Positions 13,719 through 17,712 of a stretch of DNA of 64,000 nucleotides are shown here, in pieces. The DNA comes from Naegleria gruberi (taxonomy: Eukaryota). The stretch is from assembly GCA_000004985.1 (NCBI GenBank), contig GG738883.1; one strand, 5' to 3'. A model generated the notes under the pieces. That model was not told the DNA's origin, searched no databases, and saw nothing but the letters and a program-made list of their open reading frames with translations. Position numbers and translations under genes: made by a program. Each line of letters starts with the position of its first letter. Position 1 is the first letter of the stretch.

Positions 13719-16700
13719 ATGGCAGATTTTCAGAAGGCGTTTTATGCTGCGAGAGACGGCAAAATTGATGAATTTAATAATTATTTTAATGAACAAGATG
13801 TTAATAATAAATCACAGTATGGTCAAACCATGTTGTGGGTTGCTTGCTTCAACGGACATTTAGAAATTGTTAAATTATTATTATCATGTAAAACAATTGA
13901 TGTTAATTTGGGAGTAAGTATTTAATATTTAATGTAATTTTATATTTATAATATTAGAATGTAAGTATTTAATATTATTTTTATTTATATTTATAATATT
14001 AGAGAGTAAGTATTTTAATATTTAATTTTATTTATAATATTAGGATGTAAGTATTTAATATTTAATTTTATTTATATATTTAATATTAGTCACCATTATA
14101 CACTGCTTGCCAAAATGGACATTTAGAAATTGTTAAATTATTATTATCATGTAAAACAATTGATGTTAATTTGACTGTAAGTTTAATATTTAATGTAATT
14201 TTATATTTATAATATTAGGATGTAAGTATTTAATATTTAATATTATTTATATTTATAATAATAGTATGTAAGCATTTTAATATTTAATATTATTTATATT
14301 TATAATATTAGAGAGTAAGTATTTAATATTTAATTTAATTTTATACTTTTAATTAGGATGTAAGTTAAATATTAAATATTATTTATATTTATAATATTAG
14401 TATGTAAGTATTTTAATATTAATTTTATTTATATATATAATATTAGTCACCATTATACATTGCTTGCCGATATGGATATTTAGAAATTATTAAACAATTA
14501 CTTCAACATCCAAATATTGAAATAGATAGCACATTGTCAGTGAATGGAATTAATATTCAAACAATTAAAAGTAACATGGAAAAAGAACAACAACAAATAT
14601 TAAAAGAACAATTAGAACAAGAAGAGTTTAAACAACTAGAAGTGGAAAGATTAGAAAGAGACAGAATTAAAAAATTAGAAATGGAAAGATTAGAAAGAGA
14701 AAGAATTGAAAAGGAACATTTACTAAAAATAGAAAGAGAAAGATTAGAACGAAAAGAATTGGAGAAAAAACAACCATTCATAATCACATCTGAAACATTT
14801 TCAAAATTATGTTCACTCAACCAACAAATTGATAATAATAGAAGAAAAATTGAAAAACAATTTGAATCAATTCAATCATTTTTTTCTTCTATTCAAATTA
14901 AGAAAGAATTTGAAGATGAATATTTAACAATTTGTGATAATTTAAATAATTGTTGTAATTTAATTGACAAATTAACAAGTAATAATTATAATATTGAAAA
15001 TAACGAACATTTGTTAAATATTAATAATTTGATGAATAATATTAGAACTATATTGGAATTTATTAATAATCAAAAATACTTATTTAAATTACAATCTTAT
15101 TCAGAAGTATTAAAAGACAAATTACAATTATTTAATGAATTTAATTCTCAATTTATTAAACAAGAATTATTTGACAATATTGAAATGAGTGAACAATCTA
15201 TTAAGAATATAAAAAGTATTAATATAGTTCCAACTCATAATAAATTTAGAAATGAAACTAAAACAACATTACAACAAGTTACAAAACAATTATCAAATAT
15301 TGTTAACTCAATCAATAATTGTAATGAAATTGATTTGTCACAATTTTCAAATAATTTACAAAAAGCAATGGAATTATCAGAACAAGAAGAATTATATTTA
15401 AATAATATATTGTCAAATTGTAAAGTATTAATTTCAGACAATGATCAAATGAATATTTTACAATTATTTAATTTTTATCAAACACAAGAATTAAATTGTA
15501 AATTATTAATTCAAGAAACAATTCCATATATAATTGAAAAATATGAAATGTTACAAAATATTATAAATATTATGGATGATTATTCAAATTTATCAGAACA
15601 ATTTAAAACTATTCAAAGACAAAAAACAAAAATTACAAGAAATTTACATATTGTAAATCTAGATATTGAAGGATTAAAAGATGAATTGAAACATGTCAAT
15701 AATGACGATGAAATTAAAGATGAAATTCAAACTAAAGAAAAGAATTTAATTGAATTAAAATCTAATTTGAAGGAAAATATTCAAAAGTTAAATGAAATTA
15801 AAATGAAATTTCTTCAATTAAAAACAATTGGATTTGATATTAAATCAAACATGACAAGTGATTTATTATCTAATTTAAATATTAATGAAATGACACCTGA
15901 AATGTTTAAAGAAATTAAACCAATTCAAAATTGGAATGGAAATCATAATGTTTTTATTGGAATTGATTTAAATGATAAAAAACATATAATTAAACAATAT
16001 AATTTAAAAGATAAGAAATCAATTGAAGGTTTAGAAAAGGAATTGAAAATAACAAACAAATTAAAGCACGCAAATATTATTGAAATTGAAGGAATTTACA
16101 CTGAAGCTGATAACAAACACAGTACCACTAATGTATTTATTGTAATGCCATATTATTCAAATGGAAATTTGAAAGAATTTATTCAAACTAAAAGAAATCA
16201 TCAAAGTAATACTTTAAATTTATTATTTTGGGAAAGAACATGGAGACAATTATTAATTGGAATTCAACATGTACATTCCAGAGGTGTTATTCATTGTGAT
16301 ATAAAACCAGAGAATATATTTGTTGGTGATAAAGATGAATCAACAGAATATTATCCAATTATTTTAGGTGATTTTGATATTAGTTTAGATATAACAAGTA
16401 GAACAATGAATTTATTCACAAGAACAAGTGGAATTGCTGGTACATTAGATTATTTATCACCTGAACTAGTGAATGGAAAAACATCAGCAACATTTAGATC
16501 TGACATGTTTGCATTTGGTAAAACAATTCAAAATTGTATGACAGATCAAGAATTGAAACAATTCAAATCATTGAATAATTTATGTGAAGAGTGTTTGAAT
16601 TCAGATGTAAATTTGAGACCATTTGCATCTGATGCACTTGCAAATGAATTCTTTATGAAAGAAACATTATTAGATGAAGTTAAAATTCAGAAACATGTTC

Positions 16701-17712
16701 AATTAATCGAAAATCAATCAAAAGAATTGAAAGATTATCACAATCAATTGAATGAATTTGAATTGAAAATGAAAAAAAATCATGAAAATTTGAAAACTGA
16801 AATTTTAAATCTAGAAAAGGAAAAGAAACAATTTTCAAATTCAAAGCAAAGGAAAACGAAGAAATTTCAAAGAAATTACAAAATTTGAAACAAAAAGAAA
16901 TTGAAATTGAGAAAATGGAAAAGGAAATTAAAGAATCAAAATCCAAACAATTAACAATATCACTTCCAGGTTATTGGAAAAGAAACACATTCCCAAGCTA
17001 TTCGAAAAGATATTACACTGTTGATGTTACACAATATTTAAAAGATACAATGCAAGAAATTATGAATGCATCCTGTAATTCTGCAACACTTGGATCTGGA
17101 AGAGATCAAGTATCAAGAATTATGTATTCTAAATTGATTGTTTCCAGTGTTTCAAGAATTGAAAATTCAACACTTTTCACTTCATTCAAATCAAGAATGA
17201 ATCAGTTAATTTCATATCAAGATTCAATTAATTCACTCCAAGTTCAGACTGAAAATATTTCAAAAACATCAAAAACATTTGAATGGATGAAAACAATTGG
17301 ATTGAATTCTAATATGAATGAAAAATATTTATGGCATGGAACAAAACCTGAATTTGTGAATACAATTGCAGAACATGGATTCGATGAAAGAGTTGCAAAT
17401 TTAAATGGATTATTTGGAGCAGGTATTTATTTTGCAGAATATTGTTCAAAGAGTGATCAATATTGTACGCCTGATCATTCCAATGAATTTACTCTATTAT
17501 TATGTAGAGTTGTAATGGGAAGACAAATTCATTTCACAAAACAAGTGATGAATAATCAGAGAAGACCACCTGAAATTTCAGGAAGTAATAATAGAGTTTA
17601 TGATAGTGTTATTGGTCAATCAAATACTTCAACTAATTCATATAGAGAATTCATTGTCTATGATAAATGTCAATGTTATCCTGAATTTATAATTAAATAC
17701 AAGAGACAATAA
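13719..17712 (+). CDS. Multi-exon gene: N-terminal ankyrin repeats, then long coiled coil, atypical Ser/Thr protein-kinase domain, second coiled coil and C-terminal PARP catalytic domain (H-Y-E type). Exons 13719-13913, micro-exons 13958-60 / 14003-05 / 14044-46, 14090-14176, micro-exons 14219-21 / 14265-67 / 14312-14 / 14357-59 / 14401-03, then 14447-16888 (kinase) continuing after an apparent +1 frame break near 16850-16890 into 16885-17712 (PARP)
   Basis: ATG at 13719 (MADFQKAFYAARDGK...TMLWVACFNGHLEIVKLLLSCKTIDVNLG). GTAAGT directly after the codon ending at 13913. The 14090-14176 exon (SPLYTACQNGHLEIVKLLLSCKTIDVNLT) and the exon from 14447 (SPLYIACRYGYLEIIKQLLQHPNIEIDSTLSVNGINIQ...) are in frame. 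The latter runs without a stop into the 784-aa kinase ORF, whose track start 14534 is a TTG. Kinase motifs: HCDIKPENIF (HRD-like), ILGDFDISL (DFD in place of DFG), DYLSPE (APE), no clear Gly loop. Frame 1 ends ...EKEKKQFSNSKQRKTKKFQRNYKI* at 16888, while frame 2 is open from 16753 and continues the same coiled coil (KAKENEEISKKLQNLKQKEIEIEKMEKEIKESK...) into the PARP fold. PARP fold: YLWHGTKPEF...GAGIYFAEY...NSYREFIVYDKCQCYPEFIIKY. There is no AT-rich spacer between kinase stop and PARP ORF, so one gene with a 1-nt indel or frameshift is more likely than two genes. Confidence 0.6.
13914..14446 (+). other. Two tandem arrays (4 + 6 units) of 38-44-nt GTAAG(T/C)...(T/A)TAG mini-introns, each separated by exactly 3 nt, flanking a duplicated ankyrin exon
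   Basis: Units: 13914-13957, 13961-14002, 14006-14043, 14047-14089; 14177-14218, 14222-14264, 14268-14311, 14315-14356, 14360-14400, 14404-14446. Each begins gtaagt (one gtaagc) and ends ..attag, aatag or aattag. The separating triplets are aat, aga, gat | gat, tat, aga, gat, tat. The exon 14120-14176 repeats 13854-13910 identically over 57 nt. Confidence 0.6.

Follow-up and report, generated by a model that had tools for sequence, protein, structure and literature searches.

We examined a window of 64,000 nucleotides (nt) of the Naegleria gruberi genome (contig GG738883.1 of assembly GCA_000004985.1) and, within it, a plus-strand locus at positions 13719-17712. In our reading the locus is one ancestral gene; in the window copy the reading frame is broken within the linker. 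Its predicted product starts with three ankyrin repeats and a long helical/coiled-coil region, followed by a Ser/Thr kinase of the active type and, beyond a coiled-coil linker, by a PARP domain that is tankyrase-like and has an H-Y-E triad. The conceptual product of the unbroken gene comprises about 1190 amino acids (aa), of which the linker takes up roughly 90. As modelled, the ankyrin part consists of three larger exons and eight exons of 3 nt. Exon 1 (13719..13913) holds the ATG and ankyrin repeat 1, matched by the Pfam Ank families; it ends GGA/GTAAGT and agrees with the N-terminus of the annotated protein P0001. The core of ankyrin repeat 2 is carried by an exon of 87 nt (14090..14176), which separates two arrays of very short introns and exons described below. 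Positions 14447..15904 encode ankyrin repeat 3 together with a coiled-coil-like segment rich in K, E and R and a long helical region that is conserved across the family; they align with the related proteins P0189, P0003, P0190 and P0005. No Pfam family reaches its gathering threshold in 14447..15904, the best sub-threshold match being PF20698 (17.9 bits against 27.8). The kinase domain occupies 15905..16669. The first half of the linker (16670..16846, ending ..EKEKKQFSNSK) is read in the kinase frame and is homologous to the linkers of P0189, P0003, P0190 and P0072; its second half (16849..16941) is read in the frame of the PARP domain, which extends with its N-terminal LPxYW extension from 16942 to 17712 (stop codon 17710-17712; residues 47-266 correspond to the annotated protein P0070).

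The order ankyrin, coiled coil, kinase, coiled coil, PARP had been proposed in the initial annotation of this DNA, and the profile searches bear it out: both enzyme domains and the ankyrin repeats (found in 13719-13922) pass the Pfam thresholds. The scores of the domains lie far above the level of chance, and the junction between the two frames is unambiguously homologous. The Pkinase profile matches with E=8.5e-30 and 104.5 bits (cut-off 31.7), and the PARP profile (PF00644) with E=2.8e-24 and 86.2 bits (cut-off 26.7), covering profile positions 20-198 of 199. The motifs from which the domains had first been recognised (HCDIKPEN, GDFDIS, DYLSPE, HGT, YFA and REFIVYD) are all present.

The kinase domain keeps the residues expected of a catalyst. 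In our family alignment (A4) the beta3 Lys (K30, in HIIKQY), the alphaC Glu (E46, in LEKELK), H130, D132, K134 and N137 of the catalytic loop HCDIKPEN and D156-F157 are invariant, as are the P-E of the SPE motif, the subdomain IX Asp and the subdomain XI Arg. An AlphaFold2 (AF2) model shows the canonical two-lobe fold (predicted local distance difference test score, pLDDT, 87.1; predicted template modelling score, pTM, 0.87). Foldseek relates this model to generic kinase folds (TNIK, PAK1, CaMKII, PKR) at about 20% identity, with no affinity to a specific family. The remark that no glycine loop is obvious was correct: GxGxxG is absent, and a degenerate NGNHNV stands in its place, against a family consensus of G-[NR]-H. 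Both this loop and the replacement of DFG by DFD or DFE run through the whole alignment and characterise the family; on comparison of the sequences, they do not point to decay of the window copy. Variants of the glycine loop are tolerated by some active kinases, and such a variant alone does not prove a pseudokinase. The suggestion that the domain might be a pseudokinase scaffold was therefore rejected on residue conservation and predicted fold: with all catalytic residues kept and a confident canonical model, the kinase of the window copy does not look like a pseudokinase and is predicted to be competent.

The PARP domain is tankyrase-like and, by its residues, of the poly-ADP-ribose-forming H-Y-E type. 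Its best sequence match in the PDB is tankyrase-1 (3e-17). As had been claimed, the triad is in place: wHGt, iYFAe and rEFiVY align with HGS, YFAE and EYVIY of tankyrase-1, which contain the catalytic H, Y and E. Across 47 relatives the H and the Y are invariant and the E nearly so. The AF2 model of 16912-17709 (pLDDT 90.6, pTM 0.88) adopts the ADP-ribosyltransferase fold, and its best Foldseek matches are the catalytic domains of tankyrase-1 and tankyrase-2 (E=4e-17 for tankyrase-1, target-normalised TM about 0.78). The helical regulatory domain is missing from the PARP half. Ahead of the core lies LPGYW, an instance of the motif LPxYW that is conserved in the family alignment.

The kinase and the PARP domain are separated by the frame break at 16846/16847 in the window copy and are joined in one uninterrupted open reading frame (ORF) in its relatives. 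Such ORFs, with kinase, coiled coil and PARP, are found in N. fowleri (P0002, at 6354-7763 of contig L001; P0190, 1105 aa; P0201, that is FDP41_002250, 1353 aa, with an intact kinase) and in the environmental sequence P0072, so the comparison with orthologues comes out in favour of one gene. Single-ORF kinase-PARP proteins are also encoded in N. lovaniensis (P0203), elsewhere in N. gruberi (P0196, 833 aa) and on the metagenome contigs L005, L006/L007, L008 and L039. In a long-read eukaryotic assembly (P0195, contig L083) ankyrin exons lie just upstream of a single coiled coil-kinase-PARP ORF. A profile search of 1.84 billion cluster representatives returned 1070 proteins at E≤1e-30, and among the top 150 of these no fewer than 19 gave one alignment across both domains. 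Seven of these spanning representatives were scanned, and 7/7 contain Pkinase and PARP, preceded by an SNase, WD40 or LRR (leucine-rich repeat) module or by none. The fusion is present in the transcriptomes of Nolandella sp. (Amoebozoa) and Ancyromonas sigmoides (Ancyromonadida), and is therefore transcribed as one ORF in distant lineages. By these sequence matches the kinase-PARP fusion is widespread, occurring in Heterolobosea, Amoebozoa, Ancyromonadida and many uncultured eukaryotes, that is, in at least three deep lineages. The combination had been called unusual. No description of a kinase-PARP fusion was found in the literature searched, but the fusion is not rare, given the number of spanning representatives and the depth of the lineages.

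The uncharacterised fusion proteins (N. fowleri FDP41_002250 and FDP41_002169, N. lovaniensis C9374_000562, N. gruberi P0196, those of Ancyromonas sigmoides and Nolandella sp., and those on environmental contigs) are 30-50% identical to the window protein. They share with it the helical region, the DFD/DFE kinase with the G-[NR]-H loop, the linker, LPxYW and the H-Y-E PARP, with the same invariant residues. They differ in being single ORFs, whereas the window copy is split, and in the N-terminal module, which is ankyrin in the window copy and L083 but SNase, WD40, LRR or none in other relatives. The coiled-coil linker is long in Naegleria and P0072 but short in most other relatives.

The geometry of the break was established by comparison with a close paralogue. 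The kinase ORF ends, as first reported, at 16888 (TGA 16886-16888). The PARP frame had been described as open from 16753; it is open from 16801, with stops at 16753, 16759, 16783 and 16798. The reported break between the frames is real, but its direction was misjudged as +1: seen from the kinase frame, the PARP frame is shifted by -1 (= +2), and therefore one nucleotide is missing. The paralogue P0189 (EFC38355), which is 90% identical overall and lies on another scaffold, of 259 kb, reads through the junction in one frame (..KKQFSNSKSKKSEEISKKLQNLKQKEIEIEKMEKEIKESKSKQL..; over a longer stretch ..KKEKKQFSNSKSKKSEEISKKLQNLKQKEIEIEKMEKEIKESKSKQL..). In the window copy the kinase frame gives ..EKEKKQFSNSK and the PARP frame (A)KENEEISKKLQNLKQKEIEIEKMEKEIKESKSKQL, and at the junction FSNSK/(A)KENEEISKK in the window is equal in length to FSNSKSKKSEEISKK in P0189. 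Because P0189 reads through at the same length, the missing base is placed between 16846 and 16847, that is between AAG (16844-16846) and CAA (16847-16849), in the context TCAAAG-CAAAG; the sequence spanning the break is TCAAAGCAAAGG. The ancestral junction was likely TCAAAGTCAAAG, encoding SKSK. An indel in an a/g homopolymer within 16840-16870 had been suspected; the placement given by P0189 lies outside any such run. Beyond the break the kinase frame continues for 13 out-of-frame codons (QRKTKKFQRNYKI) and the TGA stop (16847..16888). The gap between this stop and 16915, where the PARP frame has its first ATG, measures only 26 nt, which agrees with the earlier observation that no spacer or promoter-like gap intervenes. 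P0189 and the single-ORF relatives together uphold the proposal that the two ORFs are halves of one kinase-PARP gene parted by a 1-nt indel.

We give a somewhat better than even chance to the reading that a nucleotide after 16846 was really lost, by a mutation that arose very recently in a young duplicate. Under this reading, the lost nucleotide would end the kinase half 13 codons on, at 16888, while the intact PARP half would continue in the -1 frame to 17712, and the mutation would represent a first step to pseudogenisation or gene fission. The window copy could still make the kinase half (915 aa), and the PARP half only from the ATG at 16915, via its own transcript or by internal initiation. 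Several observations favour a real mutation. Members of the family in Naegleria are visibly decaying or shedding the kinase, the deleted base lies outside any homopolymer, and the paralogue P0071 is annotated as a stand-alone PARP of 265 aa with a start Met homologous to 16915. The gene is also a young duplicate, with a paralogue at 90% identity, and is bracketed by a flanking duplication. The left copy of this duplication (13009..13275) starts inside the last 32 nt of the coding sequence of an upstream PARP-domain gene; the right copy (17816..18175), about 96% identical in its core, has an 89-nt insertion and carries the terminal exon of a minus-strand gene. The GC content drops to 0.18 in the flanking-duplication segment, compared with about 0.33 in the flanks. 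Because the duplication has its start within these 32 nt of the upstream gene, the arrangement suggests that the roughly 4.8-kb gene segment between the ~270-360-bp duplicates is a duplicative insertion.

Other points weigh against a recent mutation. Past the break the PARP core is identical to P0189 at 139/140 positions and has no second defect, which would equally be expected from a consensus error. No exact match is on record for P0001, P0003 or P0071 or for the PARP ORF, which was looked up in three versions, and when metagenomes were scanned for the junction pattern, with 0-2 extra bases allowed, there were 0 matches. Finally, the near-identical paralogue could have caused a local mis-assembly.

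An error of consensus or assembly is accordingly the most serious competitor, and we regard it as quite possible, if short of an even chance. The true genome would then read TCAAAGNCAAAGG, with an extra base at 16846/16847, the locus would encode an intact ankyrin-kinase-PARP fusion of 1190 aa, and its two genes would be an annotation artefact. Exactly one base restores a reading that matches P0189 in length and residue for residue, the PARP ORF is otherwise flawless and 99.3% identical to this paralogue in the catalytic core, and so similar a paralogue invites the mixing of reads; the reference model of the gene is also imperfect elsewhere, where conserved coding sequence is removed as an intron. 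Set against this, the break site is not a homopolymer run, and several other members of the family carry disruptions of independent origin, in one case seen in two N. fowleri assemblies. The N. gruberi reference is a multi-fold Sanger assembly, in which single-base consensus deletions are rare.

It is very improbable that the locus contains two independent genes, a kinase gene abutting a separately transcribed, stand-alone PARP gene. The reference annotation does list two genes, EFC41844 and EFC41845, on the same scaffold of 371,401 bp, and the PARP-only P0071 is annotated from the Met homologous to 16915. The distance of 26 nt between the kinase stop and this ATG nevertheless leaves little between them, the PARP frame at 16849-16914 still encodes linker residues homologous to those of the fused relatives, and the annotated start of P0070 (MQEIM..) removes one strand and one helix of the predicted PARP fold.

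We consider programmed -1 ribosomal frameshifting, which would yield a kinase-only product and a kinase-PARP fusion from one mRNA, to be less probable still. The overlap contains a single canonical -1 slippery heptamer of the form X_XXY_YYZ, T_TTA_AAT on the plus strand at 16804..16810 (U_UUA_AAU in the mRNA), which lies in the kinase frame just past the last stop of the -1 frame. We judge it coincidental: by a rough estimate chance alone gives ~0.5 such heptamers per 30 codons at this composition, no stable structure follows downstream (minimum free energy -7.5 kcal/mol, z=-0.04), and the relatives are simple single ORFs. Homology to the paralogue follows the zero frame for 12 more codons past the heptamer (LEKEKKQFSNSK) and switches 36 nt further on, so the ancestral junction lies at 16846 and not at 16810. 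The heptamer is thus present, but structure is lacking and the frame switches elsewhere, and frameshifting was rejected as the cause. Two further candidates fall away at once: no GT dinucleotide occurs in 16700-16960, and therefore no GT-AG intron can connect the frames, while transcriptional slippage at the A8 run (16772-16779) is ruled out by the position of this run upstream of the PARP-frame stops at 16783 and 16798.

Comparison with the annotated proteins revealed further irregularities in the gene models. The kinase ORF is 97% identical to P0001 (EFC41844 / NAEGRDRAFT_70343), the difference being an intron of the gene model; the PARP ORF is 100% identical to P0070 (EFC41845 / NAEGRDRAFT_80603). 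The P0001 model splices out ~15216-15598 (about 128 codons; GTATTA..TCAG). This stretch is open and aligns with the relatives P0003, P0190 and P0005, and because it is open and conserved the intron is probably spurious. The gene model of P0189 uses the same donor and skips the entire kinase. An RNA-seq data set of N. gruberi, ENA PRJEB23822, is cited in PMC6142364.

The PARP of this locus has appeared in the literature. Citarelli et al. 2010 (PMC2964712) placed 'Naegleria gruberi 80603' among four PARPs that fit no clade, and described it as short, without a known N-terminal domain and with HYE retained. For N. gruberi, Perina et al. 2014 mention only proteins with ankyrin plus PARP. The present locus explains the puzzle of 80603: the protein is the detached C-terminal half of an ankyrin-kinase-PARP protein.

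Among known enzymes, the predicted protein is most readily compared with tankyrase (PARP5a/5b), with which it shares N-terminal ankyrin repeats, an oligomerisation module and a C-terminal H-Y-E PARP without the helical regulatory domain. The ankyrin array of tankyrase comprises five clusters. The window protein, in contrast, has only three ankyrin repeats, its ORFs have no SAM match in Pfam, a helical region of ~600 residues, the kinase and the coiled coil are inserted, and the identity is about 25%. Membership in the tankyrase clade (PARP clade 4) was rejected on the absence of the SAM domain and the small number of ankyrin repeats. Paralogues carry the automatic name 'TCCD-inducible PARP-like', after TIPARP/PARP7. 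TIPARP itself is a mono-ADP-ribosyltransferase of the H-Y-I type and contains a CCCH zinc finger and a WWE domain. The window protein shares with it a C-terminal PARP catalytic domain, but has H-Y-E, and Pfam finds neither CCCH zinc finger nor WWE; the name is a transfer of annotation and implies no relationship. LRRK2 and other ROCO kinases likewise combine repeat modules (ankyrin, LRR, WD40), a Ser/Thr kinase and a second enzyme in one polypeptide. This is an analogy of design only: the second enzyme of the fusion family is a PARP and not a ROC GTPase, and only the generic kinase fold is shared.

From these domains a mode of action may be proposed for the intact enzyme, and each of its steps is a deduction from domain content. 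The ankyrin loops would recruit a partner, and the coiled coils would oligomerise the protein, as the SAM domain does in tankyrase. The kinase and the unregulated PARP, coupled covalently, would then serve as two 'writers' that modify the recruited target or one another. The variability of the N-terminal repeat modules (ankyrin, LRR, WD40) suggests that they serve as sensors or adaptors feeding the two linked writers, and an architecture in which such repeats are joined to a kinase and a PARP is reminiscent, by analogy, of immune or conflict systems. The conservation of the fusion is strong evidence for a functional coupling of phosphorylation and ADP-ribosylation, and this natural, recurrent joining of a kinase to an H-Y-E PARP provides a compact setting in which the crosstalk between them can be studied.

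The association of the two domains is not stable within Naegleria. The kinase of N. gruberi P0196 has HGN and DGF in place of HxD and DFG, that of N. lovaniensis P0203 is degenerate and has lost the catalytic-loop Lys and the APE segment, and the gene models of P0003 and P0189 are without a kinase domain. The repeated loss, degradation or detachment of the kinase in Naegleria, with the PARP kept, provides a series in which the contribution of the kinase can be addressed. In N. fowleri FDP41_002169 (P0190; 6330-6390 of L001) a frameshift in a T5 run falls inside HCDIKPEN and recurs, with its T5 run, in a low-coverage contig of independent origin; the annotated model bypasses the frameshift by a 55-nt GT..AG 'intron', which deletes the catalytic loop. 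In contig L002, which comes from another Naegleria-like species, a TGA within the coiled coil terminates the kinase ORF (2758-2792), and the same frame then remains coiled-coil-like (IQKELDQLRN) to the end of the contig. The reference copy of a ricin-B-lectin-plus-PARP paralogue, P0004, ends early (..MTNKKTPRN), while a near-identical protein from an ENA contig, P0194, runs on through the region of the catalytic Glu; P0004 may thus represent a further case in which the reference copy of a family member is truncated or frameshifted. Immediately upstream of the kinase-PARP gene of N. fowleri, L001 carries a gene for an ADP-ribosylglycohydrolase (PF03747; 2431-4378) in two ORF pieces, and the two genes could form a writer-eraser pair. 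No ADP-ribosylglycohydrolase gene was found in the N. gruberi window.

The ankyrin region has a predicted exon structure of its own. As modelled, 13914-14446 contains ten introns of 38-44 nt (GTAAG[T/C]...[T/A]TAG), parted by eight exons of exactly 3 nt and by the 87-nt exon. Array 1 (13914..14089) has four introns of 44, 42, 38 and 43 nt and 3-nt exons at 13958-13960 (AAT), 14003-14005 (AGA) and 14044-14046 (GAT). Array 2 (14177..14446) has six introns of 41-44 nt and 3-nt exons at 14219-21 (GAT), 14265-67 (TAT), 14312-14 (AGA), 14357-59 (GAT) and 14401-03 (TAT). The reference model P0001 uses these exons, giving ..DVNLG-N-R-D-SPLY.. and ..DVNLT-D-Y-R-D-Y-SPLY... With the microexons the spacing from DV to [S/T]PLY is 6 and 8 residues, against 3 without them; repeat 1 of this protein and canonical ankyrin repeats both have a spacing of 8. 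Including them raises the Pfam scores from 108.2 to 119.9 bits for Ank_2 and from 51.0 to 74.5 for Ank_4. Introns of 40-58 nt join long ORFs elsewhere in the window, which indicates that introns of the 38-45-nt class can be spliced in N. gruberi.

A homologous array was found in contig L002, whose protein is 44-50% identical. Its positions 1-225 contain five introns of 42-45 nt and four 3-nt exons (TGG, CAA, CGA, GTT) directly before the exon TPLYAACSQGHLEIVKEL, and these introns align with those of the window. Taken together, the spacers measure 3 nt in 12/12 cases (eight in the window and four in L002), while the intron bodies vary in length. The gene in the window would have eight microexons and that of the Naegleria-like species at least four, and the arrays are wholly different between paralogues that are 90% identical: at the position of the array P0189 has STTYYTFM where the window has TDYRDY, between identical flanks. 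At the homologous loop positions contig L083 carries ordinary single introns. Alternatively, what is modelled as 3-nt exons may belong to one intron with internal repeats. The notion that the intron motif is a dispersed, introner-like element was discarded, as its only match in the window outside 13914-14446 is one with 3 mismatches at 39999-40018 on the minus strand, which does not start with GT. A search of the literature for tandem microexons in Naegleria returned nothing relevant.

If spliced as modelled, the region would be an extreme case of intron-definition splicing and a possible generator of diversity. Each microexon is one phase-0 codon, and any subset could therefore be skipped in frame. 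One might go further and suppose that conserved tandem 3-nt microexons, separated by ~42-nt introns, encode the target-binding ankyrin loops of the kinase-PARP family and diversify the recognition surface by splicing. We hold this to be unlikely; were it true, up to 256 loop variants could arise from one gene.

The remainder of the window carries ordinary eukaryotic genes in the vicinity of the locus (an HSP90-like gene, DP/E2F, an ion channel, and LRR, RNase III and pentatricopeptide repeat (PPR)-DYW proteins). A second, different PARP-domain gene directly adjoins the ankyrin-kinase-PARP gene on its upstream side. It is a single plus-strand ORF of 874 aa (10416-13040) with TIG/IPT, ankyrin and CUE domains and a partial PARP match (45 bits, profile positions 15-122 of 199); a PDB sequence search with its PARP-like end returned zero matches. 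Downstream, a minus-strand LRR gene (20171-21502) contains a tandem repeat with a period of 72 nt (20224-20949), whose at least nine copies are the leucine-rich repeats of the protein. A plus-strand gene for a protein with two RNase III domains (22720-24312) is joined to an upstream ORF via a candidate 40-nt intron (22660-22699), and a PPR protein with a C-terminal DYW deaminase domain is encoded on the minus strand at 27125-29692.

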